Below are positions 7,206 through 64,000 of a stretch of DNA of 64,000 nt, piece by piece. Within the stretch, counting starts at the first letter, position 1; every line of letters starts with the position of its first letter. A model generated the notes under the pieces. It had not been told where the DNA came from and did not search any database. It saw nothing but the letters and a program-made list of their open reading frames with translations. This DNA comes from Amphiscolops sp. MND2022. Its lineage: Eukaryota. Both the position numbers and the translations under genes were made by a program. The stretch is from positions 25,856,001-25,920,000 of the forward strand of contig OZ076409.1 of NCBI GenBank assembly GCA_964187785.1, written 5' to 3'.

Positions 7206-7349
7206 AACAACCGGGTGTAATAAATTATATGTATATTACAGGAAACTTGTGGAACAGGCACAAAGGAACACCTCTACCCGAGAAGGTCCAAAAGACATCC
7301 GATTTCTTTCCCGAAGAGAATACACCCCCAGGACCATCAAGCCAGGACT

Positions 7350-7368
7350 GAGAAGAGAGAGGGGGAAA
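7350..7368 (+). promoter_or_regulatory. Polypurine tract
   Basis: GAGAAGAGAGAGGGGGAAA directly before the 3' LTR TG. Confidence 0.9.
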
Positions 7369-7582
7369 TGTTATATTCGGTTCATACCGACTTGACCTCT
7401 ACCGTAAATTCGGATACCAGCAGTCTAGAAGATAGGAGTTGTTTACCAACAAACTCTAAATAGACTCTCATACCATACATACATTTATACATTTGTTTTG
7501 GTTACAATACAGTGATACAAACATAGATCTATCTCTTTTAACAATTTCCTTTTCTCTTAGCCTATACCCTTAGAATAGAACA
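7369..7582 (+). repeat. 3' LTR of Mag-like element
   Basis: Direct repeat of 1717-1930. Confidence 0.95.
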
Positions 7583-38500: not shown

Positions 38501-41500
38501 TGCGCGCTATTCTGCCATAATCTTCACGGGCTTTGGCAGTTAAATCTTTGAGTGTTTTCTTTTTTTCGGCCTTCTGGTCATGAAAATCTACTTCCGCTTT
38601 CAATTTGCCAGCATGGTCCAACTTGGCCCCGAACTTCAGGCGATTGAGGAAAACAGTGACGCTCAGCGCAGGGGCAACGTTTATATCTAGGTCCAGAATT
38701 GCTGCGGGATCGTTCTCCTCTGGAAGGGCGTTTGGCAGTACAATTCGTTTCGCAAGCTTGCGAAGGTACAGACACAGTTGTCTGAAAGAGTAGAATGCCC
38801 TGTCGCGTCGTCCACTGAGGCTGAGTGAGAAATTGGTCGTGTCTAAACAAAAGGATTAGTCATGCAATGTATACTTATTCCCAAAGTAAGAGACCAGTCT
38901 GGTACTAGCTCAAGTCCCTTCGGTCTTGTATCCCAGAGTAACTCCAAAGAGCATTTATACGAAAGGAAGCAAAACTACTGCATTGCAAATGACCCTATTA
39001 CCGTCATTAAGAGGCACCAATGAAGGAAGGAAATCTCAAAGCACTAACAATCACGGACTAGTTTGTGGAATAACTCGAGATGGCATGTGAAAAAATCATC
39101 GTGAATGATGGACCATTCAAGGCTCTGGGGCTGAAATGAAAAAACTTGATTACAAGACGTCTTGTGGACCAGAAGGCTAATGAGGAAGGGACTCCCAACC
39201 TGGCTGCGAACTCCTTGCATTTGTTGTTGTACGGCATGTGCTGTGAGGTACGTTGTGACAGCCTTCCAGTTCGCAATTAATTCTTGGCGGGTTGGCACAG
39301 TTACGACGTCAAGTCGACTCGACTTTATGGCCTAAATCGAAAGCAAGAAATTGTACGTGTGATTAACTTACGTCGACAACTCGATTGTTAAAGGTCCTAA
39401 CCTTGACTAATTCAGGGGTGAGTAAGGTCCACTCCAAACATAAACTTCCCCCCAGGCTGATAACTAGATAATGAAGTATAGAGAAAAAGTCTATACGACC
39501 AAACACACTGTAGCTGTCCCGATGCATTAGGCGTTTGATAGCAATATCATCAAAGGTGGTTGGTCTTTGTACCCCGTGGTTGGTAAGAGGAGAGTCATCA
39601 ACTAGCTGGACGAAGTTCTGGGTGGCGCCGGAGCAACACACTAAATCTGCTTCTGATGATATAGCAGCGAGCAAGGATAGTTCGAGCAGCGAACAGACGC
39701 AACTCAGCTGCACAACGTCCGGTAGTACGCCCGGTCCTTTGGAGGTATACTCGACAAAGTCTGTCCTTCTTCCAGAACCGAACGTGCAGGAGGAGGAACA
39801 CACCCTGAACTTCGAATTCAATTGAATATTGGCCATCAGTGAGGATGTCATTGCCAAGATTTGGGACAACTTGTTGAAATAGATGGTGAAACAACACCTA
39901 GAACAAATACAATCCGGTGATCACATTGTAGTACTTGACTTGGCAACCCTAAACTTTGAGGTAGTGCCAACTGATCCTTGACTCCAAGTCTGCTTTACCT
40001 ATGGTGACCTAACTACTATTCAATGGTAGTATTGAGTACACAACTAGACAATAAGTATGAAAGCCAGATGGAAACCACTCACCGATAATTTAGCCGTGCT
40101 CCAGTCTATGTCTGCGAAGAGAGCCTGATGATTCACAACAGTACCAGTGTGTTGCCAAAGGGCTCGGAGGACAGAAACGTCACCAGACAGTGGCAGATAG
40201 TGTCCCACGATTGAAATTTGTATTCGAGCTCGATTTTGGGGGGAAGAGGCCATGTGGTCAGCTCCAGACATAGCTTCCTCATAGAATGGGAGTTTCTCCC
40301 CTATGTCTACCAATTCGGCATTAATAAACAGGGGTAGTTCCAGTCGCGATTGGTAATGGGAAAGGATTTTCCGATCTTTCCCTCTCACCTGATGGCGCCG
40401 TTTTTTAGTGATAGGGTCTTCGATGGGCAGGTACTCGAACCTCCAACGTTGGTCTTTTCGAAGATGCCTCTCAGTCGCGTAGTGCCTCAAGATCTCTTTT
40501 GGGCCCATAGCCTTAATGGACACATTACATTTACAAATTTGACAGTAGATCTTATTGGGGTTCCATTTGGGGTCTAATGGTCCCGAAACAAATACACGTG
40601 TCCATGGCATGCTGTCAAAGTACTCTTCCTTCATAATCCTCCCAATTCTTCTCCTGTGCCTTGATGGTCTCTTAGACTTTGGTTGGACTTGTGGTGGCAA
40701 CCTCCCCTTTCCTTTTTCCCTAATGGCTTCTTGCCTTAGAGCTGCCAAAGTTTCGGTTCCAGGACTGGAACAGTCAAAGGAGACGGGGGAGCTCCCTTGT
40801 GCCAATTGATTTTCTCGAGGATAATTGGGGGGAACTGGAAGAGCTACTGAGGACTGAAAGTCCCGACTGGACTCTGGGTCACTGGTGGATCCGGGACTGC
40901 TGTCACCACCTCTCGTATCGTAAGTCATGACGGAATCACTTCCCACATCTGTATCAGTGCCAAGGTGAGACCCTTCTTGAGTATGCTTTCGGGCAGTAGT
41001 ACCACGGGGACTGTGTAAGTTCAGTCGACTAGCACGGATGACCACGCTGTTTAACATCTCGTATGATGCACGAGCACTCTCATCAGCTACTATGCGTAAT
41101 ATGCTGCTGATTTGATCTTGATTGAACGCAACAGTCATTTGTCCAGGAGAGAGGTATGTGGGGTTTGTCTCCTCAAAACACTGCTTGATGATCAGCCTAC
41201 TGGTACTAGAAAGAGGAGTGGGTCCCCTAGGTTCAGGTGGTAATGGATCACTCATGTCCTGACTTGATGTTTGGGGAAGAGAGACGTTGCCGGGTTTGGA
41301 GGGACTGTAGATGGCCTGGGCTAATGTGGATCTAGCCATAGACACATTATCGGTGTCCATTCCAGGACAAGACTCGACTTCTGTCTGAGACCGATAGTCC
41401 ATTTGTCCTTGAATATCCCCATTCTCGTATGTAGGATTTGTTGCTGGGGTAACTTCGCTTTGCTGGGCCGCCTGGCTCTCAGGTAGAGTTGTCTGAGTGG

Positions 41501-44500
41501 TCTGAGACGCAATTACTGGTGTTTCATCAGTAGCAAAATTTGAATCAATGGCTTCGGAAGTGGCTGCTTGGGCAGTAGCCTTATCCAGAAAAATGACGTC
41601 GGGAACATCAACGGGATGGCTCGCGTCTGGTATCATCTCATTAAGACCTGGAGTAATAGCGACAGGCTCACTCTCACTAGCTCTCACCACATTGGAGATT
41701 GCATTAGTGGCAGCAGTGACGTCCTCTTCTGAAATTGTGAGACACTCGATCTTCCTGGTGAAATATGTTTCGCAGCTCTCAGAATCTGTGGTAGAAGAAA
41801 GTTCGATCACGGACCTTAGGTCTGTCCGCAATTCGATGACCTCAGGCTCTTGCGGTTGCTCCAGTTGCGGCTGGTCAGTTTCCATTGCTTCGATGTTGTC
41901 TTGAGCTGGTTGGCCACTCATTTCGTTGTCTAAACGAAAAGAAATGAATTTTCGCGATCCACTTCCGCTATAAAAATCCATTCTATCGCGTTTGAAAGTC
42001 TTTCGAAAGCAAGTTTGTTATTTGTTCAAACCTATGGTTGAAAAGTTCACGATGGAGGAAGTGACTACTTAGTCAATGGGAAGCCCTGATCAAGCTCAAT
42101 ATTGACAAAATACTTTGAAAAGAACCAACCTGATGTTTGTCTATCTTGACAGGCAGAATTTTTTTCAGGCTACAACTGTCGATATGAGAAATTTAACTGT
42201 AAGTCGTAGTGGTTACTGCAGAAGTCAACAAACACACAATGATGTACTGAGCTAAGAATTCACGCCATAGTAGGTCGGACAGACTCACAGTCCAAAAGGA
42301 TGTAATTCGGCGGGCGATGCTGCTACTTTGACGAAAAGTTAAACCGGACAAGATCCAAGGCAATCCAGAGAGAATAAATCTGTCTAAGAATGCTCACAGT
42401 GTGCAATTCAAATAGATAAAAGGAGTAAAGAATTTAAATACTCAGATGAGAAATTGATGCTGTCAATCTGGTTTACAATGATTTACGTCAAACAGACTAG
42501 TAGTCAATATACACAATGCTTACTTATCACTACCACTTTCGACTGTCAAGACGGTTAATTACGTAATTATTATACTTACACTCCTACTTGAAATTTAAGG
42601 ACGTCGTGGCTACATGTACCTTAGCTTACCAACTTATCTAATATTAATTGAAGTATGTCTTTATTGTATTATGAAGTGTTATCGATTCTGCCAGAAAAGT
42701 ACACTTTCTACTTTGACCAGATCATGATCCTCATCCTTTGGTACGATCCTTTGCCTTTAGTACATTATCCCAACCATTATCTTTAGATTAGTTTCATCAC
42801 TTTCCATTACTTCATTCATTTATTCAAAATTTTCATTCAGAAAATTCATTCATTTATCTGTAGAATTTGATTGGTTAGCAAGTCGTCACTAGTTGAGGCG
42901 GACCGGTAGTCTTTGATGCTTATTGTTGATTGAAGATTAGTGTTAATAAACACTTTCACTAACAATTAACGTCACCTAACTTATAAGGGCAAGCACTTGA
43001 AAAGGTCTCAAGGGTTATCTGAACGAGCGATTACCAATATGATAAGGGTAATTAAAGAAGCAAAATCACGGGGACTCCTGAAAATGGAAATGTTTGGGAA
43101 TAATATCTTCCCGATTAACCCGCCACGGGTTTCCCCGCCGACTAAAGAGAAATCTCGGAAAATTAGTAAAATCCGAAGACTCATTCAACTCACAATTTTC
43201 ACCAGATTCAGATTAACTAATCACTTACCCGGCAAAATAGCTAAAAAATTCATCCTCAATAAACACCGCGCTGAGATGTCTCTTCAATTCTCCGTAGATG
43301 AACTAATACAGCCACTGGTGAGTCTATCTTACCTATCATCAGAGGAAGAAATGGAAGTGGACTGCCCGTCTACCGGAACTGAACAAGACCAGGATCAAGA
43401 TAGCGACATTGAAGTGATCGCTTGCTTCCGAGAGACCTCTATGCCTATCCCGAAGAAAGTTGGAGGCAGAGGTATGACGCTGGACTTGTCCAGTTGTGCT
43501 GATAACGACTCCCTAAGCAATACTCTCTGCAGTGAAGGCAGTTATTTCAATTCAGAGCCAAACAGCGAATTAATCGACCTGGTGTTAGGGTTACACCCTC
43601 CGACCGGAGAACCGACTGGCAAAGAAGGACATCCTATGGCGACCTGCAGTCTATTGGCACCAGTGCCGGATTCTCCACAATCGCCCCCGCCCCACGAGAA
43701 AGGACATCACACAGGCCCTCAACTACCACAATGGGATCATGACGAACCGCTTTGGCCTTGGATCTCGCATATCACAGGGGTCGCAGTACAAACAAGTGGC
43801 TACTGTGGCACGCAGAACTTGGTCCAACATGGAGACTGTCTAGTTTGCGGCAAATCCGCTAATATAATCCATGAGGAAGTCACCTTTGATTACTTGGAAC
43901 GGACTCACAGGGCTGGAGAATCTTACGAGACGAGACAGAGAAGACGACACGCTTTCCAAGCGGGCATGCAGGCGGGCGCTTTTGTTCTCGTCCCCCGGGG
44001 ACTGTCGCAGTCTGCCGCCTGCGATGGCAACAGCTACCAGATTGTGCCTAATGAGATGAGTGACATGCCGTTGCCTGCTGGGGTGTTACCCCTATAGATG
44101 AAAGAGACTACAGGTCCGCACAAAACTACCCCGTTAAATGTGATGTCAGTATAAACTATTTTAGTTAGCATTTATATTATTTTACGGACCATCGGTCCAC
44201 CCGTCTAAAGTAGACAGTCTGTCAAACTAGTATCCTAGAACTGATTATTCATTTCAATTAGCTGTGTATTCATTTGTATTTACGTGCTTAACCATGTAAA
44301 CCAAATTACCAGTGAATTTTATTAACAATATCAATTTGTAAGGCAACCAAAAGGTAGTAAGGAAACGCGTTCGAATTACATCACCGTCAGTATAATCGAC
44401 GCGTGGTCCTTTCTGCTATTAACCAATCAGCTTTCAGGAAGCTTTTCATTCGCTTGTGCTATACTGTGCTTATTCTTCTAGTTGCCATTAATCGGTCGGA

Positions 44501-46654
44501 CCACCAGTCCGTCACATGTAAAATACGTGTAATGTTCATGCTGAAAATCATCTTTGCAAACAATGGCTTAACTAAAGTGGTCCGCATGTATTTAGTCTTG
44601 AAAGGAGTGCCGCCATTCCCCCCACTGAGCAATTTTACTCTAGTTCTAAGAAACGTTGCTAAATATAAATATGACGTAGCAGTGACGTTATCCTTCGAGG
44701 GCTTTTGCCCAGATTTGTTGCTATTTTTAGATACGTGACGCTGATAAAATTTGCTTGTCATGCTTTTCCTACTATATATTGGGAGACCGTAAGTCTCCCA
44801 AAAACAATCTTACGCTATTCAACTCAATTCAATTACACTCTGTTCAGTGACAATCTCTGATGCAAATTTGGACTTGAAGTCCGCAAATACCTTGTTTGAC
44901 TTGATTCAAAATATCCCGTTTTGTTTCTGTTGCATTCATTTCAGTTGGAGTAACTTAGTACAAACAATATAGTGTTATTTGAAAGGAATCTTTTAAATGC
45001 CTTCCACAAGAAAGCAGAAAGCAAGGGAAAAGCGATCAAGGCAATCAGACGTAATGTCTGATCTAGAAAATATGAATGTCATGTTGGGAAATTACCAAGA
45101 CAACCAATCAGACGTTGATCTGAATGAAAATGTAGAAATGGACTCAAGGTCCAACGGTACAAGGACCGACATGGTCAGGAATTGTGAGGATTTTAGAACA
45201 TTATTAGCATCTGAAAATAGAAATAGGTGCGAAATACCTACAGAAGCTAATAGACTCATTTCTGAGGAGATAGCTTGCCAAATGAATAGGAAAATGGATG
45301 AACTGAGAAGGAATTTAGACACGCAAATTACAGAGTCTATTAACTCTGCAATTCATGATTCAATCCTTCCTTCTATCCAAAATTCGTTATCAGGACAAAA
45401 AAGCGGGTTAGGTACAAATGTGGACTCAAGGTCCAGTAGATTAAGCAGGAACACCGAAGGTAAAAAGCACCAAAGTGCTTGGGGAGATACCCAATGTAGA
45501 GTACAATCAAATTCAAACAATCATCCCCAATCTAGAGATAACTCATTAAGCTCATTAGACTGTAGGGATGATCGCGACATCTTCTTAATCAAAATCAAAA
45601 AATTTTCGTGAAATAAAAGTATGTTCTCATTTTTTAATACCGCGATGTATCGCGATATAAGACTTAAAAATATACTGTTACCGTACCGTTTTAGTAAAAT
45701 GCTATACCGCAGGTCCCTATCATTAACCATTTCGGAAACATTCAAACAATTCTAAAATCTCGGAAAATTGGTCAAACATGAACGCTTTTGGATTGTTTCT
45801 AAGTAGATGGTCCTTTCGAGCCATATTTTAATCAAAAGAATTCCCGTTTCTCTTAAAAACGTAATGCGAGTGTTTCGTTGTTAAACTTTTTCACCTTTTA
45901 ACTTTCAATTAGAATTGAAACAATTGCATGTATATGGTTGAAAAAGGCACTTCTGGAAATTTTGGCTATGTTGGAGTCATTTTTAGGTACTTTATTAACC
46001 AAACTTTTCGGATTTTTGTTTTAAAAGCGTCCCGTTTTGAGATCTTATCGAGAAGAAAACGCCGCTCAGTTAGTATCTTTCCTTCCCATATTGGAATATG
46101 AGCGGAAAATAACAATTTTTTTTTGTATTTTAGGTGCCAGTGATCTGTTTAGCATTGTATGCGTACCGATACTCTTCAATCTTGGAGATGTTCCAGCAAG
46201 TCGAGGGTTTTTCACTCTCGTGTCAATATTGAATTCTATTGGGCAACGAGCAGATGACGTCATTATTTTACTCACGATTGATTGGTTCTTTCACAGAGTG
46301 AGGACCTCGCTTAATGTTTTACACGATGCGTATGGTGCTGCAATTGTGAGTCATTTCTGCCAAAATCAGCAACTGCTGTTGTCAACAAAAGAGCCCAAAA
46401 CCAAAAACGCCGTTGAAAAAACAAAACAAACCAAAGAAGTTGAAAATATACCTGATTCTACTGTGGCTGATACTTCTCGTTCAACCTCTCCTATGATTAG
46501 TTATGAGGTAAATAATAGTTCAAAGCCTGCACAATCAGTCAAATTTCTCCCTGTTACTTTTGCAATTCCAAACGGGGATCCATGGAATGGAAGAGGCAGC
46601 TTGAAATACGTGAATAGCACTTGGTGTTGCAATTCTCCGAGTCCCATCAATTGA
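8587..46654 (+). CDS. SLC1/EAAT-family amino-acid transporter, 5'-partial; exons 8587-8753, 8825-9414, 10140-10309, 46134-46654
   Basis: GT-AG junctions with compatible phases (0, 2, 1). Motifs: DLILDKFRNIFPEN, NLLG, YSPIG, TRKNP, PVTMKC, GAILNVDG..LYE, DWFFHRVRTSLNVLHDAYGAAIV. The N-terminal TM1-3 exons were not found. Confidence 0.85.
10941..12045. mobile_element. Possible non-autonomous DNA transposon with imperfect TIRs
   Basis: CTAGGTGAATAAAAAAACGGAACGCACAAAAATTTTG at 10941 and an inverted copy ending at 12045; a related copy lies at ~855-910. Confidence 0.4.
11258..11980. repeat. Foldback-like element with inverted arrays of ~15-bp AAATTTCGTCG units
   Basis: About 6 TTTCGTCG-like units at 11258-11355 and inverted CGACGAAAT units at 11903-11980. 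Confidence 0.6.
12215..13961 (-). repeat. 3' LTR of element A
   Basis: Direct repeat of 26890-28636. Confidence 0.97.
13870..14688 (-). CDS. Accessory sense ORF-X of element A (272 aa; acidic/Pro-rich N-terminus, C-terminal CxxCGK domain), stop inside the 3' LTR
   Basis: Homologous to 43276-44097 (B) and 52949-53998 (C): MSLQF start, GDCxVCGKS, AFQAGM, SQxAAC. Confidence 0.85.
   Translation of the reverse strand: MSLQFAVEDLISPSVSLSYLSSEEEDMDVDDPQKAPDEKGYDSDIEVIACYSEAQSTRPLGIAGRAMTTEFTDDGDLTLLEELYGRSIKTDTEPPSDLVDQILGIHPPSYSRKLSQERPIAECARISPIPDTPLSPPPHEQGCNVNNAGNPWSDDDFPYQPNNAHITGIAISNSGVCGLPNQVAFGDCIVCGKSFETIREEITFNFLEQTHLVGETYNTRLRRRNAFQAGMLAGSFTVIPRGVSQAAACDGNSYQVMVDENDLRYMPGTLPL
16160..20510 (+). 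CDS. Antisense spliced accessory gene of element A (~1280 aa, BED-like zinc finger plus hAT-transposase-like body); exons 16160-18154, 18307-18792, 18865-18999, 19073-19154, 19366-20510
   Basis: Donors GTAAGT/GTAAGT/GTTGGT/GTTAGT with AG acceptors join into one open frame (3843 nt). The same junctions occur in B and C. The true start may be ATG 16220 if 16014-16211 is an intron. Confidence 0.85.
20733..25787 (-). CDS. pol: pol of element A (PR, dUTPase-like segment, RT, RNase H, IN, GPY/F), expressed by -1 frameshift
   Basis: Motifs LVDTGA, YVDD, TDAS, ADYLSR, HHCC, D-D-E and WIGPY; ORF is in the -1 frame relative to gag. Confidence 0.95.
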   Translation of the reverse strand, partial: KKLKKLVLPRLQFNGKLRIRQYIISDPSTVFYIEYYSSLKKTSSADWQQQMRNTPTQFCTSDHRSDRLTSTTDYIRSLPLIPDYNPYYIDPDYGIDPYWDAQIYNQHELQFYANFNKPQTEIEPDCPMTDRALNHTLTIALVDPWQANTNSCVLPTQEEPDTKFNSFGPQVSLTSAVEARFVNTLVTRNGEPDYVPLTTNLGLKYKRRMLYFPMDFGELTLDGLVDTGALSSAIPEADLRKIRLLAPQSIVKEGPAPNFQIMVANGQLETPKSTVELKFEVGDIEFHEIFIVMEKLTSPLIGLSFLQRNNTILDMRQGVLNFPFFSMQLKTADHKYTNVMEPICTQEDITIPPNDRHLVTLSSQMYDDTTVTGILQPSNALTEDGDIAFCAALVTLTSGQVEIHLNNFTDHPYTLKRGSHVANFSVMTPGQMKYVKPIDPVTTWHLLQDNPENAAFYVSSLIKSSKPEDFRENYWFPTPEDPGDPQQHTPIQKRILTELLNLQELEKLNPQDDPESRRRFLANFDWTDSMLQSDEITRIENLLVEFHDIFARHRFDIGMNEEFKVKLTPKDDSPAYSQSLPTPINLKEDILVELALLQRYGIITTLPFSKYASPIFAQKKPNGKLRLLVDLRKINNLISDDYINNNHPVSTLTDAAQHMAGKKLFCKLDCSQAYHCLQMADQRSIEMLAFNFASRTFAYRRLAQGLSRALSAFSSFMREYLDKVIKADQCAQYVDDIGIAANDAEQLIKNLRATFQCIREAGLKLTMHKCHFGATEIDFLGRTITPVGVRPQRPRVQNFLENTKFPKSKKALQRYLGFLNYYRNYIPRLSERLTPFFKLLKNDEKVLVTPDLLEKFTDINKALDRCCELALKQPLPNKQIALMTDASFMAAGYAVLIEDDPQEKYTSTRKAFAPVAYGSKTFSPAQLKMSIYAKEFLAIFFAFKEFGHIFWGTPKPVIILTDNKSVTRFFQTKIIPPTLWNACDYVIQFNFTIAHIPGKNNTAADYLSRLEISPKEKLILRIREDIPTTPIELHVQSAGITEEEQIFYTDDEDETEEQIWQRKKKSRDNPSNQLPDISFQKFTTHHSNYQKLPICQKLANTNTVTIEQNNDVILQQLKLKIQKEEYSETILIQDTRYQHYLRQLDRLSIQNEIITRQYYDETGTVKYNQVLLPKHLVTELLESLHGKANRHPGIAKMLQEIRSKYYYPGIAKIVRKWVNGCETCIKDKRTPNELINPELLNLPEWTLGPEDAMQIDLLPNLPPSGGYENIITAMDVFSRYLFAYPVTDASAAITAKVIIDIMTKHTYLPTTLITDKGSAFTSKLVAEIAQILGIQIKCATTKHPQTIGKLERTHASLKTNLKMASGEYRRQWHKYLPLAVLNYNTSYHSTLGCEPSRIFHGRIPYNILDHKLGLNPNPQVLPTTDFAEEFQRRSQVLIDSTKKNIMQSYLKYKEYYDRKAKAAPLKLNDYCFILQPIADHQGSKIPFREFRWIGPYIIEKVLPNDNYIVRKLNSNKTQILHRIRLRKYEPNTDLQDVRPEGNLQPDDEIVIPQDDLYVITWETNFEDFASTRRQPTYEQSTERPEITSGEDTNFDQPDQILTDVDLQSTRHDETEETLPERIMPDSDDDSIPGEETSSGGSDTIVPEVSESENDEMIVENESPRGGRYNLRPNPTPNYSEEYRY
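25769..27487 (-). CDS. gag: gag of element A (572 aa, two CCHC knuckles), starting inside the 5' LTR
   Basis: CNYCKKPGHVKDDC and CPTCGKTNHPAERC; ATG 27487 lies inside LTR 26890-28636. Confidence 0.93.
   Translation of the reverse strand: MPSTRKQRAKERRSRQLDIMSDTENLDVMLGSYPRNELGNDSDRNGEIDLGSDGTRGDPLQNSEDFRSLLNSNSNENSESTVETMRLVNSEITKKIDELRRELNSQLVDVINSAITEKVLPDIRNLVSNQNPVFREEVDQRSSGLNRTTEAKFVKNAWKGNSKLNMATSSRQDYFRRNSENSQSSDDGHEEDIMTNSHDMVTGAKPTPRTVPEFLTGRPMHSREETQNSHSPRIQTLENVPPVQETDVNDGSDPIRRLADVLVGMNNKSSTQTLMVRPVSTTTLTFDGKSEKFELFEDLFHTMVKMQPEMTETMKINHFHSLLRKNALQTFRNISTANRQTLEDVLAVFRRKYVKPESQATAKHKWHKLVFDPNTMKLPDFLEELNQGAEKAFGENAQAMIDSLLYAKLPPKLKRSVNMARLENAWYEEIVTHLERELELNGLEGGDDIPVPTMSTAPTATRPGTGLLSSGIDPNITCNYCKKPGHVKDDCRKLKRKEEQRRNDGQDTKKEYPKCPTCGKTNHPAERCWKGAGAHLKPKNLKLEDAKQDEASPGQNETKDKQSTSILKNSKN
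25772..25787 (-). promoter_or_regulatory. Two tandem A-AAA-AAC slippery heptamers before the gag stop
   Basis: Minus strand reads TTA AAA AAC TCA AAA AAC TAG; the -1 frame is open into pol. Confidence 0.8.
26872..26889 (-). promoter_or_regulatory. Primer binding site TGGTGACAGGAGCC (priming tRNA uncertain)
   Basis: TGG adjacent to the LTR CA; the first 14 nt are identical in element B (31375). Confidence 0.75.
26890..28636 (-). repeat. 5' LTR of element A
   Basis: Direct repeat of 12215-13961. Confidence 0.97.
29121..29195 (+). repeat. tRNA-like Pol III head (SINE or tRNA pseudogene fragment)
   Basis: A-box-like TGGCATAGTGG (29127) and B-box-like GGTTCGAGTC (29179); no convincing cloverleaf. 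Confidence 0.4.
29790..31374 (+). repeat. 5' LTR of element B
   Basis: TGTCAC...CGCGACA, followed by TGG PBS. Confidence 0.95.
30792..37529 (+). pseudogene. gag-pol: gag-pol of element B with several frameshifts and stops
   Basis: ORF fragments 30792-31574, 31635-32741, 32976-34433, 34451-36094 and 36236-37513 are colinear with and highly similar to A gag/pol. Confidence 0.93.
37695..41981 (-). pseudogene. Antisense spliced accessory gene of element B; exons 41981-40083, 39897-39402, 39331-39200, 39130-39049, 38842-37695; ~10-nt insertion frameshifts exon 2
   Basis: Junctions orthologous to A. Peptide YTTNFSLSLSGRRDRAFYSFRQLCLYLRKLAKR is identical to A despite many synonymous changes. Confidence 0.85.
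43276..44097 (+). CDS. Accessory sense ORF-X of element B (273 aa), stop inside the 3' LTR
   Basis: Starts at MSLQF by homology to A; intact frame. Confidence 0.85.
   Translation: MSLQFSVDELIQPLVSLSYLSSEEEMEVDCPSTGTEQDQDQDSDIEVIACFRETSMPIPKKVGGRGMTLDLSSCADNDSLSNTLCSEGSYFNSEPNSELIDLVLGLHPPTGEPTGKEGHPMATCSLLAPVPDSPQSPPPHEKGHHTGPQLPQWDHDEPLWPWISHITGVAVQTSGYCGTQNLVQHGDCLVCGKSANIIHEEVTFDYLERTHRAGESYETRQRRRHAFQAGMQAGAFVLVPRGLSQSAACDGNSYQIVPNEMSDMPLPAGVLPL
44003..45579 (+). repeat. 3' LTR of element B
   Basis: Direct repeat of 29790-31374. Confidence 0.95.
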
Positions 46655-51576: not shown

Positions 51577-52995
51577 TGTGATAATCCTCCTCATCGGATT
51601 CCTCATTAAAGATAACTGTTGCATCTAATGTTGTGTCATTTTGGTGTATAGGTTTAGCGGGATGCCTTAGATCTCTCATTTCTGAGGCTTTGAGGGGAAT
51701 ATCTTCGTTTTCAGAGTCTATACTTTCGTTATCAGATGCGTTTACTCCCATAGACCTTTTGCCCTTGGATCCCGATGGTTGCATGCTTTCTATTTCATTC
51801 ATCTCAGATCTAGGATTAGTTGTCATAGATGTGCTTTTATTGGTTTTTATCTCCATCAGAATCGCATCTAATTTGTTCTCCATCTCTTCTCTCATTTTAG
51901 TGATTCTATCGTTGTTTTTCTGTTCAAAAACCTCGGTCCAAGCTTGAATTTCGTTACTGACTTGGCTGGGTTCAACTAGTCTGGGTCTCAAATTAGTTTC
52001 ACCTAAACTTTCTTGACTTTGTAAACTAACATTAGTTAAAGTTTCATTACCTTGACTTGGAGTTTCTATGCGTACTTCGCTTGCCTCTCTCTCTCCGGGG
52101 ACGGAGTTTCTAACCTTCTGGACCTTCGATTTCTTCTATTTCCCATCTTGCTCAAGAGGAAAATTGGGTTGAAGTGCAGAAAGAATTTGAATTTATTCGT
52201 CAAGGTTGTGAAAACAATTCAGGTGAAACAAAGAGTTATCAAGGAAACTGCTTTTACAGTGTTTGGGTTTACTGTTACAGAGCAACTGTCTCTGGTCCCA
52301 GTTATATTTCAACTGAAGTAAAACTGCACTTTTACTGATGAAAAATTACAAAGCATGACACTCAATTTTAGGGTTGTCATCGATCCAAAAATACTATAGA
52401 TAGACTTACGTCAGGGTAACGTAATTCTATATATAACTTACAAATAGTAATTGCATGACTTCCAATAATCTAACTATGCTAAAGCAACAAGTCCCTGGGA
52501 AACTGCCGAATGCCGCATATACGTATGATCAAAGCTTATTAAAAGCACCAATAAAACATGTTATAAGTTAGAATCCGCATGGTACCGCATATGCGTTACC
52601 CGGATTACCGCATAATGACGCATACTCATCGTTACTAAACTCACACAGTAAAGTGTTAATGGCGTTACGTTCACAAAATTAGTTCAGAAAAGACGTCACG
52701 TTGTTCTAGCTCCGAAGTTAATGAGTGCATATGTTCATTCATGTCAACAAAATGAAAGCATCAATGTTTAAGGCACTTGTCAAAGCATAAACATCAAACT
52801 ATAAGATTAAAGAGTTTGCATGACATTTTCAAGGTATCAACTGAAAATTAAATCAACATAAATAACAAAAAGGAAGTTAAGAGTGCTCAAGAGTTTCAAG
52901 TCCTCGAGTTGTTTTAGGGTTCTTTTGGAGATGACTAAGTATTCTCGTTTAGGGTTGTTGCCCAACAGCTCCAGCACAACTGTGGGATTGTGACA
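51577..52995 (-). repeat. 3' LTR of element C (~1419 bp, inferred)
   Basis: Terminal inverted repeat TGTCACAATCC / TGTGATAATCC. The boundary falls at the same GLSQ codons of ORF-X as in A and B. Contains the frameshifted gag start (ATG 52146). Confidence 0.8.
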
Positions 52996-53998
52996 GTCCT
53001 GCACTTTTAAACGAGAATAGAGCAGCTTCAAAACCATCTATGAAAGCACGGGATCTTACTCCACGGTCTCTTACTGTCTCGGTGTCGTAGGCGGTTGCCA
53101 TTAAATATTCGCCCAAAATTTCCAATGCTATTTGATCGTAGCACTTCCCGCACCAATCGCAAAAGCCTGCTACATTTGGCATCACGGTGGGGAACAATCT
53201 GTGCATCTGTCTTTCACTAGTTGGGATAAGTAGCAAATTGGTACTATGTCCCACATGAAAAGGGAAATTAAATACCTGCTGGTTATTGACCACTTGGGCT
53301 TGCTGATGCACATCCATTCTTCCACTATTCGGGGGTATTTGTATCATCAATGGGGCGTTTTTGTAGACTACCATATTGTCCACTGGAGTAGGGGCTGTCA
53401 TTTCCTGTTGGTTATAGTTACTCGGGTAGACTGTTTGATGATGGTTATTGAAGATATTGGGTTGTAGCATTTGGAAGTGACTTGCATTAGCCACGAAATT
53501 CGGAGGGTAGGTTGCAGCTGGCCTGTTCACTGGTACGCTCCTTTGAGGATTGTCCCGGGGCGTTGGTAAAATAGCTGCTGTTGTTCTCCCATAGCTGTTT
53601 GTCGAGCCTTCCTCCCTAACTTGAGGTTCCCAAGGTGACATAGGGGAATCTTCTAGTTCAGTGTCAATGAATGAGGTGGATGGGGATTCGTATATATGTT
53701 GATCTTCTTCCATCAAGTCCACTAACTGGCGCTCAATTCTTGTTCCAGAAATGTCGATTACTTCGTCTTCTCTTGATCCACTTGCTGAAGTAGGAAAAAG
53801 GGAAGCTGTCGCCGCTCCCATAAAGGCGGTCATGACATCAGATCGGGGGCCGCCAGGCCTAAATCGATCTTCTAACTCCGATACGTCTCCAGGGTGGACA
53901 ATAAATTCATCTCCAGAGTCACTTGAGACGTCAATTATGACGGGGGACAGCGAAGGTAGCGCCAATTTTTCCTCAAGATTGAATTGAAGATTCTCCAT
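52949..53998 (-). CDS. Accessory sense ORF-X of element C (349 aa)
   Basis: MENLQF start, GFCDWCGKCY, ETVRDRGVRSRAFIDG and GLSQSHSC align with ORF-X of A and B. Confidence 0.8.
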   Translation of the reverse strand: MENLQFNLEEKLALPSLSPVIIDVSSDSGDEFIVHPGDVSELEDRFRPGGPRSDVMTAFMGAATASLFPTSASGSREDEVIDISGTRIERQLVDLMEEDQHIYESPSTSFIDTELEDSPMSPWEPQVREEGSTNSYGRTTAAILPTPRDNPQRSVPVNRPAATYPPNFVANASHFQMLQPNIFNNHHQTVYPSNYNQQEMTAPTPVDNMVVYKNAPLMIQIPPNSGRMDVHQQAQVVNNQQVFNFPFHVGHSTNLLLIPTSERQMHRLFPTVMPNVAGFCDWCGKCYDQIALEILGEYLMATAYDTETVRDRGVRSRAFIDGFEAALFSFKSAGLSQSHSCAGAVGQQP

Positions 53999-55483
53999 TG
54001 GTATCGTGTGGTTAGATAGTTTTGAAGAATGAAAATTACGAGCTTTATTGTTTTGGATTATTCCGATTGAGGTTTAATTCGGATGAGCTACTGCTTCTAG
54101 TTTTCTAATGAGACCTTATGGTAGTTGTCCCATAAATCCCAGTTGTTTCCGATGATTCCCGCGGAAATGCTGAGCGTCATGATTTCTATCTTATCTGATA
54201 CCCTTATATGGGTTTTAAGGAAATATAGTCGGATATTTCAAAGAGATGAGTTTGATCTGTATCCATCAATGAGGTGTAAACAATTCGATTTCAAGTGTTT
54301 TCTCAGTTTCATCTTGTAATATTACACCTCTTGCTGCTCACTATCTCACTGAGATGATGATTTAAATGATTTATCAACAATTTTCTTCCTATTTAGGAAG
54401 GTAAATTAGGTTTACAGTGAAATAATTATTCATGTTATTTTGAACAGGGTTAATTCATCCAATTTTACATGACTGAATTGAGAGAAAATAATGAAAATGA
54501 TTCAGGAAAGAGTTTCAAACAGACGTATCAAAAATTAAAACATGAGTTCGTCTATCTAATACATTCACACTTTCATCGGTCCTGCACTTAAAAAGTGCAC
54601 AATGGAGTTATATCTAACAATTTTTCACTCATTTTAAATTTCTCAAAAGATTAACATATGACGTTGCCACATAACAAGTGCCATATATCCTTGTAAATTC
54701 AGTTTTCACATTCGAAGGTAAATTCATGTTTCCGTACATCAAATACTGCTCATTGCCTAATAGTTTACTATTAGCTGAGAATAAGTTTGTTTTAATCACA
54801 TGTACTGCACATCTTGCCACGTAGTATTATTTGACTTTGTGTAGTCAAGAATGAATACTATTACGTCATCCTGTTTGTTGGCCATCTCTTTTCTTCGCTG
54901 TTCGTTATTGTGTGTTATTCCGCATGATACCGCATACACGGCATACGTATCTCCGCATGATGGCGTATACTCGGCACCTGTAGTTCCGCATGATGACGCA
55001 TAGTGTTTCACTCAGTATCCATAATTCCGCATAATGCCGTATATTGTATGTAATACAGTGTATATGCTGCGCATTCTCTCTATTCACTCTTGTTTGCAAT
55101 AAGAGTGAATAATGCGTCACTTGTTGGTGTCAATTATGTAATCTCTCACTCTGGCAGTAGTGATTGACATTTAATTGACCAATCAGATTCGAGCGCTATT
55201 TGATTCAAAGTTTGCTGTTTGGTAACATTTGCTTTTTGCCCGTAATTTATACGCCACGCCTTCTATGCTTGCATATTTGAGTATCTTTTGCATTCTAATC
55301 TTCACCAGTCCTTTTGTATTTTTTGAGTAATTAGTCTCATAGTCAAAGTCTTTCTCATCATCTGCTACACTTTTCTAGAATTCCATACTCTTGTATTCCA
55401 TTGCCGTCATTTAAAATTCGTTTCTTTATTATTTGTGTGACAACGACACTGTATTTGCATCTTTATTATCCCATATCCAGTAA

Positions 55484-58400
55484 ATGGAGTCTGGTAGTCG
55501 AAGGAAATCACGCAAGGACCAGATTACGAGGCGACAAGCTACATCGTGGGGGTTCAAATCTCCTACTGAGACTTCTCCTGGTTAGTTCAAATTTGTTTTC
55601 GTTTTGATTCAGATCAGGGTTTATTTGATTGTGGGGTTTATCATGCAAAACTGGCCAGGCTTGCAATCAAAAATAACCATTATGTGATGGTTACGATTTT
55701 CAATTTTCGGTACCGGTTTTCTTCAAAACATATTTGTTTCGAGTTGATTTAAGGGCGGAAGTAGAGTGTTTCATTTCTTTCACCGCGTCCGGTTCAGATT
55801 CAAACCAAACTACTTCCTGTGATTTTTCTGCTTCCGCTTCCGCTTTTAGCAGTTTGTTGTTTGTTTTAGTTGAACTAGGAGCTACTCAGAAATCACCTTC
55901 CCGATCCCCGACGAAGATTTATACACCTCTTCAAGTTGCTGATCCTGGTCAATGCAGTCGTTCTCCTCCTGATATTCTTCAACAAACTACGGCTGTAGAG
56001 GATAGTGACGGGATTGAACGCGTATCCTTGACTAATTTAGCTGAATATCCCAGCTTTGTACCGCTCCTAGTCCTTGATTCTACTGACGAGGAAGAGAATA
56101 TTCCAACTGAGGAGATAGTACTGTCCGATCAAGAGACTCCAGAGATGAGTGCCGCCAATTCACCATTGCCTCAAACGCCCCCCATTGTGACTGAGAAGCG
56201 AGAGCCAACTACTAATATCACCACTTCTCCCCGCTTTACTGAGTTTCTCCGAACCCCCCGAGGAACTACTGTCCCTACAGGAGGACGCAAAATTGTGGGA
56301 GTAGATATCCCACTCTCATCTGATGTGGAAGAAGCGGAGCCTGAGGTTGATGGAACAAAAGAGTCTGCTGAACATGCGGAGAACAATGATTTGGAGGCAG
56401 ATCTATCAACTGATTCTTTGAGTGGCCTCGGAGGAGAGACAGATGGTGAAATGGTCCAAAAAGTCACCATCACACGACGTGAAGCAATTGCCCTAACAAA
56501 TGTGCTGGACAAGATTCCACGAACGGTAATGCGGCAAGACAATCAAGCTACAGTTGACAACATTACTTTGACCGTAGTTGACAAGCCTTCCAACCCACCT
56601 GAACCAAATGTACAAGATGACGAACAAGGGGGTTCCGCTGAATTTCCTTCTGGGGACAGTAGACCTAATCCGAGTCCTGACGATCGGCCAGTTCTGCGGG
56701 GTAAGAGGCGAAGGCCGAAATATTCGCTAACTACCGCCATGCTCAAGAAGCACCCTGTGGTGCAATATTTCGCAACGGGCCCTCTCGACAGGAGCAAAAG
56801 CCCCTACAAATGGTGGTGTCGTGTCTGCAGGATTGAGCTGTCCCTAATGAGCAGAGGGGTGCTCGAGTTATTGTCACATTTTCGGACCGAGACTCATTTA
56901 CTAAAGGAGCATCGAATTCGACTCGAGACACCCGGGTTACCCCTGTTCGATCAGAATGAAAATGAATTGCATGGAGTGGGGTTACAAGAGGCCAAGAGAA
57001 GAGCCAGGGAGTCCCATCCCATCGCCCCCCAACTGGACAGTTGTCGTCTACTTGTGGGCCAGGACAGGCTACCGGAATTCAGCTCAACCACGAACCCGAG
57101 TGAGAGCGTCCTCGCTCAAATTTGCATTCTGGAACACGGGCTACGTCATGGTGGGCATGTTGACCTTCTACTTGGAATTTGGGAGGAAATGACTCGGCTA
57201 ACACCAGGGAGCAGCGCCCAGACAACTTCCCACAATTGGACCAAACATCGACTTTATATAAGTATTTTTGCTCGTCAAAGTTTGCTTCGTATGATTTCTC
57301 TGTTTTCCAAAAGGTTGTCTTGTTTAGGCCATCATAACTTACATGTTCCGAGAACTGATGCATTACTGTGTGGTTACAACTGGCATTACTGGAATCTGTT
57401 CATTGTCGTACCAGAGTTCTTTTACTGCCAACTATCTTTACTTGAATTTTTGGTCGGGCAACATCTATTATCAAGTATGTTTGGGGTCTGGACCACGAGG
57501 GATTCTTTTACCCAAAAAGATTCTCACTTTAATCTCCTCTTATCTGAGCCTATTCGAGAATCCGCCCAACTGCCTCAGCCTAATCAATTTCGATGAAAGA
57601 CTCAGCACTAGTTTGAGTTCATCGCTCCCTGGAAGGAAGCGACCTATGATCGTAACTGGATTCGGTCCCACTGAATTGGAGAAGTGTCTTGCGATGCCCT
57701 CATCCCGCATTCTAGAGAGACACGATTTCAGAACTATTCTCGACTTTCTGTTGATGAAGTTAAGGACTGCACTCGATCAAGAGTGGTTGCAATCCGTTCC
57801 AGTTCTCCATAAGGTATAATATTTCCCTCATTTTGTGTTCAAATGTATTTTTCATCAGGGTGTCCAATCTTTTCTGTTTTTGTAGTGTGTGTTGCAACTG
57901 TCGTATAACTTGGAAGAAGCATCATCACTCATCGCACTACTCTCAGCCAATTGGGACAAGGTGTTGGAACACCTAAACCGGATTTCACGTCTGCCAGCTT
58001 TTCGGTTCCATATGAGAGAGGTAATAACTTGTTTCGCCATCTTTCCTTTCTATTATTGTAATTCTGTGAACTAATCTTCATGGATTGTTTTAGCCCAGCA
58101 CACTAGATGAGTGCTTCAGGCTTGATACTGCCTACCCCGCCAGGCTGTTTGTCATTCGCTGCGTACTGGATCATTGTTAGTATCAATTTATTCCACTAAG
58201 ATGTTGCTCACTTGGTATAAAAAATTTCGCTTCCAAACCTCCGTTTCTTTAAATCTTTCCAATTTCTTCAGAGATCAATTTTTATAGGCGCACATTCTGT
58301 CTTTTTGTAACTCTTGTTCTTTTAGTGGTAATTAGAGCATTACCGCAGGATGACGGATATACGTCACTTCAATTTCCGCGTAGTACCGCATATGCGGTAT

Positions 58401-59650
58401 CTCTTTTTCTGTATAATGCCGCATAATCATCGTCAAAATTCCTGCCATTTGCTTGATTTCAGCATAATACCGCATTGAAATAGCTCGTTTTTACAATTAT
58501 TGTATCTTCCGCGTATGAGATTACATAATCGTCTTGTCCTGTTTCAGATACTTCAGCCTTCTCTGAGACCGATTCAGGATATGGAGCTGGGTTCAGACTG
58601 TTCAACCAATTTGCTGTCTTCGTGTATAGTCAGCTTCAAAGTATTTTGCCAGACAGCGTCCAATGAAGCATCTCTGATTGGGATAATTACTTGAAATTGG
58701 ACTTAACCCAGGCAGACCTCCCTTTCAAGAGTGCCGACGATTTCGTTTTGAACTCTGATTTCCACCGACTTGTTACTTCAAGTAAATTACCAAGACCAAG
58801 CAAATTCATCGACCAGTCTATTGCTTTTTACAAAGCTTTCTGTCGCATTCTGTTACAACACAAAATTGTCAAGTCCGATCTTATTCGAGGGCTCTCCTGC
58901 TTTGACTCTGCCATGGTTCTCGAAGGAGGAGAGGATCGGTATATTTCCGCAATAGAGCAGCTAACGAGTCACTTCGCATCGCATGGCAGCATAACTGCAA
59001 GCGATAAGACCAAAGCAATTAGTCAGTACAGGGCCCTGGTGGTCAAGTTTCGATCTTCGCAAATCGATCGGACAGTGGATTGGTTTACATTCCTCTCTGG
59101 CCACTATGAACTGCATTGTCGACCAGAACTGCATCAAGTTTTCAAGTACGCTTGCCTCTGTCTTCCACCAATGGCGAAGTTTCCTGTTCGTTTTGAGGTC
59201 CACATACCAGAACTTGGCCCTGATGAGGAGGTATTTCAGTCCTGTGTAACCTGCATTCAGGTATCTTATGCGACGGTGCCTAATGTGAGCAGTCTGTTTC
59301 GTGACCCTCGATCCAATAATCGTGTCTTCCGCTTGATAGGGAAAGGCAAAGATTTGCTGAGCGATCGCAAATTCTCAGTGTGGAATTTCCTTAAAGGCAG
59401 TGGATTCCGCAGGACCAAATGGCAGACGAAGTTCGAGAATTCATATAAGAGTGTGGTTGCTAGGAGAGAAGAAGCGCTGCTTCCCGACGATTCTGATGTT
59501 CCTTCTGCTAGTCATTCATCTAGTAATGCTAGTTCACCGGCTTCACGAGCTTTAACTGGTAAAGTTACACTGTCATTGCCGCGCTGTGTCGATGAAAGGA
59601 AGGATGATAAACGGAGTAAGGGAAAAGGTGAAAAGACCAAGAAGAATTGA
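55484..59650 (+). pseudogene. Antisense spliced accessory gene of element C; exons 55484-55580, 55870-57257, 57328-57813, 57886-58020, 58094-58175, 58548-59650
   Basis: WWCRVCRIELS...HFRTETH zinc finger; internal exons of 486, 135 and 82 nt exactly as in A. The donor at 57258 reads ATAAGT (mutated) and there is an in-frame TGA at 58664-58666. Confidence 0.8.
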
Positions 59651-59821: not shown

Positions 59822-62800
59822 TTAATATCTGTATGTGTCAGAGTAATTTGGGTTGGAGTTAGGTCGTAAATTGTATCTATCACCACGGGTATTTATGGGT
59901 TCTTCTTGTGATGGGGTATGTTGTGGATTTTCTGGGGTTTTTTGGATATCATCGTCAAGTGAATTATTTGCGTCTTTTTGGGTTTTTTGGGTACTTTGAT
60001 CATCTTCAATGATTTGTTGTGGTATTTCATTTTCATGGGTTTCAACTGGTTCAGTGGTCTGTTCCACTGGGCTCCCCCCACTATTTTTTGAAGAACCTGG
60101 GGAGGGTGGGCGGTTTTCTTCGGGCATTTGAATTGGAATGTATTCTGTGTCTTCAGTATTTAATGATTATTCTGAAGGACCATCGTCAAAAGGATTTGAA
60201 CCGAAGTTCGTGTTCCATGATTGGGCATATATGTCATCATTTGTTATAGGCATTTGGTCATCTTTTTGCCAATCGGTTTCTCGGACAAAAATATCTGCTA
60301 AGGGCGCTTGCGGAGTGAATTTCCGTAGATGAATCCTGTGTAGCAGTTGCGTTTTGTTAGTCCTGAGTCTCCGGACGATGTAGTTATTGTTAGGGAGCAC
60401 TTTTTCTACTTTATATGGCCCACACCATCTGAATTCTCGGAATGGTATTTTTGTCGCTTGAGTATCAGCTTTTGGGTTAAGAATGTAGCAGTAATCCGTT
60501 GTTTCGAGCGGAGCTGCTTTCGCTTTGCGGTCATAGTAAGCTTTATATTTGAGATATGATTGCATGATGTTCTTTTTGGTTTGATCTAGAAGGATTTTCA
60601 TGCGTTTTTCAATTTTTTCCGCCACATCTGCTTGCGGTTGGTATCGTGGGTTAGGATTGTATCCAAGTTTGTAGTCTAGGATATTGTGTGGTATCCTACC
60701 ATGGAAGACTCGTGAAGGTTCACAACCGAGTGATGCATTGTATGTGGTGTTGTGATTGAGGACTGCCAAGGGGAGATATTTATGCCAGTTGTTCCTGAAT
60801 TTGCCTGTTGCGGCTTTTAGGTGCATTTTTACTGATGCATGTGTTCTCTCAAGGAGTCCTATTGTTTGGGCATGTTTCATTGTTGCGTGCTTCATTTCAA
60901 TTCCAACTACTGCCGCAACTTCGTGAGTTACTTGTGCATTGAATTGAGTGCCTAAATCTGTGATTATCGTTGTTGGAAGGTATATATGTTTGCATAAGAT
61001 GTCCATGATAACCCTTGATACTGCTGTTGCAGTAATACGAGTTACAGGGTAGGCAAACAAGTATTTTGAGAAGACATCTATTGCTGTGATAATATGGTCA
61101 TAGCCTCCACTAGGGGGAAGGCTTGGTAAAATGTCCATTTGCAAAATTTCTTCCGGACCGAGATCCCATTGCGGACAGTTAAGAAGTTCTGTCCTAAGGA
61201 GATCATTGTTGATGCGTTTCGTTTGGATGCAAATTTGGCAATTACTGACCCATTTTTTGATGTATTTTGCCATACATGGTAGTAATATTTTTGTCTTGCT
61301 TCTTGAATCATTTTCGTAATTCTTGGATGGTTCGAATTATGGCCATGTAAGGCTTGAAGAAATTCGTCTAGGAGTTGGATTGGTAGGAGGATTTGGTAGT
61401 GAGATATAGTTCCAGTGTCGGTGTAGTATTTTCGTGTGAGAACTTCCTGTTTAATTTCTATTCGTGTTATGTTCTGTAAGTAGTGCTGGTATCGGTAGTC
61501 TGATGCTAGTTCATTCTCGTCAAAGGGGTTTCCTTCGAGTTTTGCTCTGAGGTTTCTTAGAACTATGTCGTTATTCTGTTCGAGGCGGATTCTTGCATTG
61601 TCCTTAAAGTATCCCGAAGAGCAGGAGATCAGACCTGATGTAGGTTTGTGGAATTGTTGTAGCTCGGAAACGGCATTTTCTGGCTCATTGTGTGTTTCAG
61701 TTTGTGCTTGATTTCGAATATTTTGTTTTTCTTCCCATAATTGATTTTCATCAATTTCATCATCTGGGAGGACATAGATTTGTTCTTCTTCGACGATGCC
61801 AGTTGATTGAATGTTCACCTCAATCGCTTTCGTGTGGAGGTCGTTGCGGATTGTCAATTCCAGTTTTTCTGTTGGGTCGACTTCCGTTCGAGATAAGAAG
61901 TCGGCAGCGGTGTTCATTGTTCCAGCTACGTGGGCGATCACGAAGTTGTATTGCAATACATAATCGCAGGCGTTCCAAAGTGCTGGAGGGATCATTTTTG
62001 TTTGAAAAAATTGGGTTACAGATCGATTGTCAGTAAACACGATTACTGGGAGGTACTACCCCACATGAGATGTCCGATTTCAACAAATGCAAAATATATT
62101 GACAGATATTCCTTTGCATAAATTGACATTTTCGTCTGTGTAGGGTTGAAAGTTTTTGAACCAAAAGCTATGGGTGCATATGTTTTGCGTTTTGATTGGA
62201 GTTTTTGGTTTGGGTCATCCTCTATCATGAGAGCATATCCAGCTGCTGTGAAACTTGCATCGAACATGACTATAAGTTGCTTGTTTTTCAGCGGTTGTTT
62301 TAGTGCTAACTGGCAAGAATTTTCTAGGAGTTTGTTGAGGTTCGTGAAGTCTTCTACCAAATTTGTCGGTACATAGAATTTGGAAGTTTCTTTGAGGAGT
62401 TTGAAGAACGGTGAGAGCCGTTCCGAAAGGCGTGGTATGTAAGTTCGGTAATAGTTTAAAAATCCGATATACCTCTGTAACGCTTTTTTTGATTTCGGAA
62501 AGCGAAGCTTTGAGAGGAAGTCTTTTACTTTGTCGGCTTGAGGGGCAACTCCATCTGGTGTGATTGTGCGTCCTAGAAAATCGACCTGTTTCACTCCAAA
62601 GTGGCATTTTGACATGGAGAGTTTTAATCCTGCATTGCGTATGCATTCAAAGACAGTTCTGATTTTCGTACACAGTTGTTTTGTGTTATTTGCCGCGATG
62701 CCAATGTCATCGACATACTGTGCACATTGGTCTGCTTTAATTGCTCTGTCCAGGTACTCTCTCATAAAACTTGAAAAGGCGGCAGAAAATGATCTGCTGA

Positions 62801-64000
62801 GACCCTGGGCAAGGCGTCGATAAGCGAATGTTCTGCTGGCAAAGTTGAAGGCGAGCATTTGGATGGATTGGTAATCCGCCATCTGCAAGCAGTGGTAAGC
62901 TTGGGAGCAGTCCAATTTGCAGAAAAGCTTTTTCCCTGCCTTATGTTGGGCTGCATCCGATAAGGTGCTTACTGGGTGGTTGTTGTTGACGTAGTCTTCA
63001 GTGATGAGGTTGTTGATTTTTCGTAGGTCAACGAGGAGTCTGAGGCGCCCGTTAGGTTTGCGTTGTGCAAATATTGGGCTTGCGTATTTAGAAAAAGGTA
63101 GTGTTGTAATGATGCCATACTTATGTAGGAGTGCAAGTTCCACTGTAATGTCATCTTTAAGATTGATAGGAGTTGGCAGACTTTGGCTGTATGCAGGTCT
63201 GTCGTCATTTGGCGTTAGTTTTACTTTGAATTCACGGTTTATGCCTATGTCGAAACGGTGTCTGGCAAAAATATCATGAAATTCAATGAGGATTTCTTCA
63301 ATTTCTTTCCGTTCATCAGGACTGAGTGTTGTGTCGGTCCAGTCGAAGTTTGAAAGGAAAGCTTTTCTGGAATTTTCATTATCTTGTGGGTTTAGTTTTT
63401 CAAGTTCTTTGAGTTCTAGGAGTTCTTTGTAGATTCGTTGTTGAATTGGAGTGTATGTTGCTGGGTCACCTGGTTCTTCGGGAGTAGGGAACCAGTATGT
63501 CTCCTGTTCTGAGTTCGTTTTTGGAACTTTGAGGAATTCGTTTATGTAGACGTCCGTTGTTTCCTCATGTTGTATCATGAAGGACAGTAACGCTGGGTCT
63601 ACTGGCTGTATATGTTTGATTTGTTCCGGTGTCAGTATCTTGAAATCCGCTAAATGGGTATCAAGGGTTATTGTATATGGTAAATCAGAGAAATTGATGA
63701 TTTGGTATCCAATAGCATTATTGTTAACGGTACTGAGTGACGCTGTGATGAAGATGCTATCGTGATTTTCAAACTGATGTGATGGGGTGACTATTCCGGT
63801 TGCGTCATGGTCCATCAGATGGGGCATTCTGCTTGCAATTGCTAGGGTTTCGCCTGGTTGCAAGGTATATGTATTTTCTGCAAACAATGGTGTTGCTTGT
63901 CGTATTGATGTTTGGGTGTCGGGTTTGAGCTGCATTGAAAGATAGGGGAAGGTTAGGATGGCTTGTGTGACATCAAAAATTGCGTTATTTCTACTTAGAA
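59822..64000 (-). pseudogene. pol: pol of element C (RT, RNase H, IN); frameshifts near 62045 and 61275, stop at 60167
   Basis: YVDD, DASF, ADFLSR, integrase core, WCGPY, and C-terminal RYNLRPN..PNYSD.YRY. Confidence 0.92.

Follow-up and report, generated by a model that had tools for sequence, protein, structure and literature searches.

Two studies of the VANC protein (PMC5735166; PMC10398659) describe a protein that is encoded by a VANDAL element and paired with a short, family-specific motif, which is dense, in one orientation and located in non-coding DNA including the introns of the regulator gene, with related families using different motifs. In the hAT transposase Hermes, two BED fingers bind a palindrome cooperatively and another protomer takes a third repeat, and in Tol2 a palindrome is accompanied by a third repeat 10 bp downstream, a figure given without specifying a gap or a start-to-start distance (PMC10368747). 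The antisense genes in long terminal repeat (LTR) retrotransposons termed aORF-3R are stated to be of unknown origin and function (PMC7264820; PMC11963269; PMC8220671). The locus described here lies in a stretch of 64,000 nucleotides (the window) from Amphiscolops sp. MND2022 (assembly GCA_964187785.1, contig OZ076409.1, positions 25,856,001 to 25,920,000), from which all DNA evidence was drawn and which holds three related Ty3/gypsy elements, A, B and C. Element C was found to possess ten copies of a composite unit, which are likely to be double-stranded DNA sites for the product of the element's own antisense gene, a predicted hAT derivative whose proposed role is to activate the element or counter its silencing in a family-specific manner.

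A composite unit in the non-coding DNA of element C

The unit has the form tCCGCAT-RRTR-mCGCATa, with all ten copies on one strand and grouped in three clusters. These are located in the U3 region of the LTR (52574-52624, plus strand; units at 52575 and 52608, with a gap of 33 bp), between the divergent open reading frame 3 (ORF3) and antisense gene (54919-55043, plus; units at 54920, 54953, 54986 and 55027, with gaps of 33, 33 and 41 bp) and in the last intron of the antisense gene (58342-58476, plus; units at 58343, 58376, 58409 and 58460, with gaps of 33, 33 and 51 bp). The same compartments (LTR, 51577-52995; intergenic region; last intron, 58176-58547) had been named in a preliminary description of this DNA and were borne out, and the placement of all three clusters in non-coding DNA has p ~0.02. 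The CCGCAT half-sites which that description listed are all at the positions given, as is a palindrome, TACCGCATATGCGGTA, at 58384, and the clustering it reported does exceed chance. However, its seven CCGCAT pairs at 10-bp spacing are exact only at 52575/85 and 54920/30, four others having one mismatch and 58409/19 two, and it had missed the units at 54953, 58343 and 58376, the RRTR spacer, the 33-bp period and a third half-site.

The spacer is conserved, with T at its third place in 10/10 units, and the CpG of the second half-site is retained in every unit. A start-to-start period of 33 bp was observed for five of the seven within-cluster gaps and is represented in each cluster (p ~5e-6 when tested against a uniform null; an origin by duplication is compatible with this period). 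Directly after the second half-site, half of the ten units carry a degenerate inverted third half-site (background 6.7%, p=2.6e-4, post hoc), and the perfect palindrome at 58384-58399 consists of the second and third half-sites of unit 58376. The two U3 units, 52575 (which has the inverted third half-site) and 52608, lie upstream of a TATA-like box (TATATATA, near 52428-52435) at distances of 140 and 173 bp, and a partial extra unit, comprising a second half-site and the remnant of a third (52503-52524, plus; 13.6 bits), is found ~68 bp upstream of the same box.

The motif also emerged from a motif-blind test of all hexamers at spacings of 6-25, in which CCGCAT at 10 bp was the top pair in the non-coding DNA of C. 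Seven such pairs were counted there compared with at most three in 200 shuffles, and seven over the whole element compared with at most five in 60 shuffles. When up to one mismatch was allowed, spacing 10 gave seven pairs, all in C, and every other spacing gave 0-2. In a leave-one-out profile each unit scored 12-32 bits, the best score in positions 1-50000 on both strands being 8.7 bits. A looser form of the pattern occurs six times in C and not at all in A or B.

Over the 18-bp core, units of one cluster are 0.76 identical and units of different clusters 0.78, with the tails beside it at 0.31 and 0.36, respectively. This bears directly on the contrary case named in the preliminary description, an independent miniature inverted-repeat transposable element (MITE) or satellite, here inserted three times. 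Short repeats in three separate places could give that impression. However, a search of the three cluster regions identified no terminal inverted repeats, flanks or body common to them, the cross-cluster matches being confined to 9-21 bp around the core or to chance matches, and the remaining ~50 kb of the window contained no C-type unit. A satellite or minisatellite was likewise rejected, as the units are not alike along their full length (tails 0.31 identical within clusters). The core is alike within and between clusters, the flanks are near-random and terminal repeats are not shared; the clusters are therefore not considered a MITE or a decaying satellite, and within this window the idea is hardly credible.

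It is improbable, too, that the units are leftovers with no present function, either subterminal repeats of a captured hAT element or neutral tandem duplications of 33 bp, in each case multiplied through slippage and template switching. In this direction point the Tandem Repeats Finder result, in which one of the three clusters is a 33-mer present in 2.5 copies (78%), the hAT end within the window, with ATACCGC repeats like the core (45637, 45704), and the decayed state of this C copy. However, neutral decay would be expected to hit core and tail equally, and they were found to be 0.77 and 0.34 identical; the CpG mentioned above is intact in all ten second half-sites; and the three separate compartments, including U3, have only the core in common.

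Elements A and B, which serve as comparators, have no C-type unit and possess a palindrome of their own, RGACYNNNRGTCY. This was identified at 45 sites in the window (0.59 expected), spanning 12387-45434 and all inside element A (12215-28636, minus strand; 20 sites) or element B (~29790-45579, plus; 25 sites). Counted with one LTR per element, A has 16, B has 20 and C has none. Its density is 2.3-4.4 per kb in the LTRs and 1.6-2.7 per kb in the intergenic regions, so that the earlier claim of a concentration in the same compartments as the C motif holds for these two, but gag-pol accounts for 14/36 sites and the last intron for one in A and none in B. Thirteen of the 20 A sites align to an intact B site, and one site is ~10 bp from the TATA-like box in the LTRs of both elements. 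All six gag-pol sites are kept between A and B at matching positions, four of them with altered spacers; part of this conservation is explained by coding constraint, since the pol regions of A and B are 85% identical. The pol of element C is without the palindrome at all three alignable places.

The arms of RGACYNNNRGTCY pair at the rate expected from independent choice, and no pairing covariation was observed, which argues that these sites are not RNA hairpins. A role in RNA had to be considered for the C units also: on the genomic RNA they would form single-stranded sites to which the finger protein of the element, or a protein of the host, binds in order to control export, packaging or translation. 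All ten units share one orientation, although p=0.25 if counted by cluster, the three clusters are all within the predicted genomic RNA, and the intron cluster folds better than shuffles (z ~ -3). In addition, in a model of the finger, matrin-type (matrin/U1-type RNA-binding) fingers match best, tied with zf-BED. Against this, folding better than shuffles is absent for the other two clusters (z 0.1-1.7), Rfam gave no match for the clusters, the fixed 10- and 33-bp spacing suits a helix, and the A/B counterpart is the palindrome with arms that do not covary. This explanation is regarded as unlikely. A conserved core with unconserved flanks, the lack of a common RNA structure and motifs that are mutually exclusive between A/B and C suggest instead that binding is to double-stranded DNA, and the reading of the units as candidate protein binding sites, already present in the preliminary description, is the best one.

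The antisense gene and its predicted finger

In all three elements an antisense gene lies between pol and the 3′ LTR, which is the position of aORF-3R genes. In element C it covers 55677-59650 (plus strand; start provisional), with a long exon extending to ~57257 and later exons inferred at 57328-57813, 57886-58020, 58094-58175 and 58548-59650. The last intron (58176-58547, plus) is of the GT..AG type and the homology of related proteins begins at its acceptor. The long exon encodes an acidic S/T/P/Q-rich part, a basic stretch and a BED-like finger of the pattern C2-x16-H-x5-H. The N-terminal part of the antisense protein is long, acidic and of low complexity (D+E 14-18%, S/T/P/Q 34-38%). An in-frame stop (58664-58666) and a non-canonical donor near 57258 indicate that the gene is broken in this copy, and intact copies would therefore supply the protein in trans.

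A scan of 20 proteins for zf-BED gave one above the cut-off (P0319) and two more below it, the C finger itself having no match. At the expected DDE positions, located in a by-eye register against the hAT pattern, A has FSVEFE and CCSGA and C has CSLSYQ, and in the same register no ERxFS-like motif was seen at the expected hAT position. None of 53 family members matched the C-terminal Dimer_Tnp_hAT domain (PF05699) at E<=1, and no profile match was found between the antisense protein family and the hAT remnant of the window. Taken together, lines of evidence that are weak individually but converge lead to the prediction that the protein derives from a hAT transposase and lacks clear catalytic residues. 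The A-like proteins (A, 17000-17230; P0288-P0370) have a conserved island of the type LPxGHxxVAFTExQ in their variable N-terminal region and a conserved N-terminus, MDxxxGSxPxxFIxF, both of which are candidate partner-binding motifs.

The preliminary description had proposed a specificity switch through a strongly diverged C finger. The C finger shares 36-38% identity with the fingers of A/B, compared with 24-27% for the rest of the protein and 47-62% for pol, and the A and B fingers are 86% identical to each other. A switch remains plausible but the argument from divergence fails, the finger being the best-conserved part of the protein. In Hermes the bases are contacted by residues that precede the first zinc histidine, at -8 to -4 and -1 (PMC10368747). 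In a putative mapping by register, the equivalent residues are R,G,V,L,E,S in C, K,G,P,K,E,R in A and M,G,P,K,E,R in B, so that the presumed recognition loop of C differs from A/B at 4/6 positions. Loop classes were read only in sequences with exact finger spacing (166/249); the C loop, MSRG, was found in 71 of the 91 C-like proteins with that spacing, and 72 distant proteins included KTKG (16), YSKG (8), KSKG (7), YGRG (5) and YGKG (5). The loop differences plausibly fit a switch. Finger divergence is by itself uninformative, and the link of finger to motif is a single contrast (A/B versus C), in which co-evolution is inseparable from shared descent.

Sites for host factors commonly accumulate in the U3 regions of LTRs, and the C units could be sites of a host transcription factor recruited by C, with another recruited by A/B and the antisense gene a passenger or otherwise employed. 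The U3 of C is not alignable with that of A or B (scores of 41-42, compared with 222 for A-B), which makes a block swap possible, and the units are 68-173 bp upstream of the TATA-like box. However, the unit recurs before and in an intron of the antisense gene, the ~50 kb of other window DNA is devoid of it, and the element encodes a finger of its own, with a loop fixed in the family. A host factor is accordingly rather unlikely.

In the preferred reading, in which the sites belong to the antisense protein, this protein would have kept its BED-like finger and probably lost catalysis. Each half-site would take one finger, the 10-bp repeat setting two fingers on one face of the helix, and with the inverted third half-site the arrangement would become a triad, a palindrome plus one, comparable to the three BED sites found at the left ends of hAT elements. 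Owing to the 33-bp period, successive triads could then be loaded by a multimer; a multimer is inferred because the topology of the unit is the same as that of Hermes and Tol2 sites. The U3 sites upstream of the LTR TATA box could drive the gag-pol RNA, those before and within the antisense gene could give feedback, and the acidic S/T/P/Q-rich N-terminal region may recruit host machinery, so that transcription would be raised or protected solely in the family to which the protein belongs, the protein of each family recognising that family's motif. With regard to methylation, no CpG excess was observed between the two LTRs of B (3/94 CpG and 5/128 GpC positions; low power), which gives no support for a role of CpG methylation or for demethylation.

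It is also conceivable that the element protein binds the units for a step at the DNA level (holding complementary DNA ends, targeting integration or pairing copies) or as a repressor rather than an activator. It is known that hAT proteins multimerise and bridge DNAs via BED sites (PMC10368747), and the A/B sites are spread through the whole element including pol. However, the C sites are hundreds of bases from the LTR ends and clustered at promoter-like places, and the long acidic N-terminal part is regulator-like; this reading is very improbable.

Structure of the elements and neighbouring features

Element A was found to have LTRs of 1747 bp (99.9% identical) and a 5-bp target site duplication, ATACC, and element B has LTRs of ~1580 bp (97% identical) with the duplication TCTTC. 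Both have TG..CA LTR pairs and an identical primer-binding site, and the order protease-reverse transcriptase-RNase H-integrase in the pol of A (Pfam) is that of Ty3/gypsy elements. The 5′ half of element C is outside the window and of its LTRs only the 3′ one is inside (51577-52995, minus; 1419 bp, TG...CA with imperfect inverted ends), with the layout of the paired LTRs of A and B. Its pol (59825-64000, minus; reverse transcriptase, RNase H and integrase) is frameshifted and colinear with that of A, at 47-62% identity from reverse transcriptase to integrase. Common to A, B and C are gag, pol, the intron-bearing antisense gene and a sense ORF3 entering the 3′ LTR. The ORF3 of C (52949-54073, minus) is sense to gag-pol, has a CxxC motif and shares homology in its C-terminal part with the ORF3 of B. 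The ORF3s of A, B and C (13870-14805, 42970-44097 and 52949-54073) have CxxC, overlap the 3′ LTR start and are without a Pfam match.

The LTRs of A, B and C (12215-12812, 44997-45579 and 51577-52146) hold ~200 codons of the 5′ part of gag, and in element A the gag frame continues across the LTR end and primer-binding site. An atypical purine tract precedes the LTR (CCCCCGGGGA in A and B). A dUTPase-like stretch appears between protease and reverse transcriptase in the pol of A (20733-25805; Pfam E=0.002, below the cut-off). Element B is inserted into a hAT remnant (29156-29788, 45581-45720), which has a Dimer_Tnp_hAT domain on one side and, on the other, a TAGGG-type end whose ATACCGC repeats resemble the C core. 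An LTR fragment of a C-like family (78-707) shows 70% identity to the C LTR and terminal bases alike, its U3 being outside the window. A separate gypsy element of 5.9 kb (1714-7582) has 217-bp LTRs (99% identical) and is without an extra gene. A host sodium:dicarboxylate symporter gene is present in two parts (8759-9637 and 46025-46654) split by A and B, and 15- and 30-bp ACGAAAT-rich tandem repeats just left of A (11259-11315 and 11893-11981) are perhaps the end repeats of another transposon.

Comparison with known systems

Element C resembles Hermes, Tol2 and Ac in having a BED-like finger before a putative hAT-like body, a palindrome with a third site ~10 bp off, and repeats mostly in one orientation (PMC10368747). 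However, its sites have no nearby terminal inverted repeats and are found at promoters and in an intron, not at transposon ends, its motif differs, and its protein has no recognisable catalytic acids and is extended at the N-terminus by a long acidic part. In position and orientation the antisense gene is similar to aORF-3R of Grande, RIRE2, Retand (TRP28) and Boty, for which a nuclear DNA-binding regulatory role has been proposed, and Retand also has family-specific repeats in the same region (PMC7264820; PMC11963269). For those genes no similarity to other transposons is described and no target site proposed, whereas the gene described here probably stems from a DNA transposase, contains several introns and has a candidate target motif in each family. 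In the literature searched, from which subscription journals, Repbase and supplements are excluded, no LTR retrotransposon was found to be described as containing a gene derived from hAT or BED proteins.

Element C was observed to have, in non-coding DNA and introns, family-specific motifs that are dense and face the same way, as known for VANC and the VANDALs. However, VANDALs are Arabidopsis Mutator-like DNA transposons and the present host element is Ty3/gypsy, and no sequence link of the antisense protein to VANC was found. Binding and demethylation have been shown for VANC, with element C known here from its sequence. VANC motifs are 8-9-mers in tandem repeats, whereas the C unit is composite and phased, and its tails are not conserved. 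With TnpA of Spm/CACTA, and with further regulators that evolved from transposases, the proposed system would have in common a transposase origin, dense family-specific motif clusters and recurrent loss of catalytic residues (bioRxiv 10.64898/2026.08.24.746577). Those regulators serve their own DNA transposon or the host, whereas here a hAT-like gene is inside a class I element, and the text of that preprint does not mention 'retrotransposon' or 'LTR'. Plant Mobile Domain modules are a looser parallel (bioRxiv 10.1101/2024.09.27.615353).

A wider scenario, plausible but somewhat doubtful, is that a Gypsy clade captured a hAT transposase, disarmed it and made it a private transcription factor, each lineage pairing a finger variant with its own DNA code and even rewriting pol codons to hold sites, so that one genome would carry many insulated circuits (loops MSRG, RAKG, YGRG, YGKG, YSKG, KTKG and KSKG). 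Where the antisense extra genes of LTR retrotransposons come from and what they do are described as open questions (PMC7264820), to which this case offers a likely DNA-transposase origin, and a concrete candidate target motif for two lineages makes the regulatory idea testable by a simple cross-binding assay. By analogy, the proposed system would work like VANC and TnpA while being a member of neither, and by position it would stand among the antisense extra ORFs. If true, self-encoded, sequence-specific transposon regulators would be extended from plant DNA transposons to retrotransposons. Finger variants tied in cis to their own elements could be read as a BED-finger recognition code, and element C and its relatives would then provide both a retrotransposon counterpart of VANC and TnpA and a natural table of BED-finger recognition.
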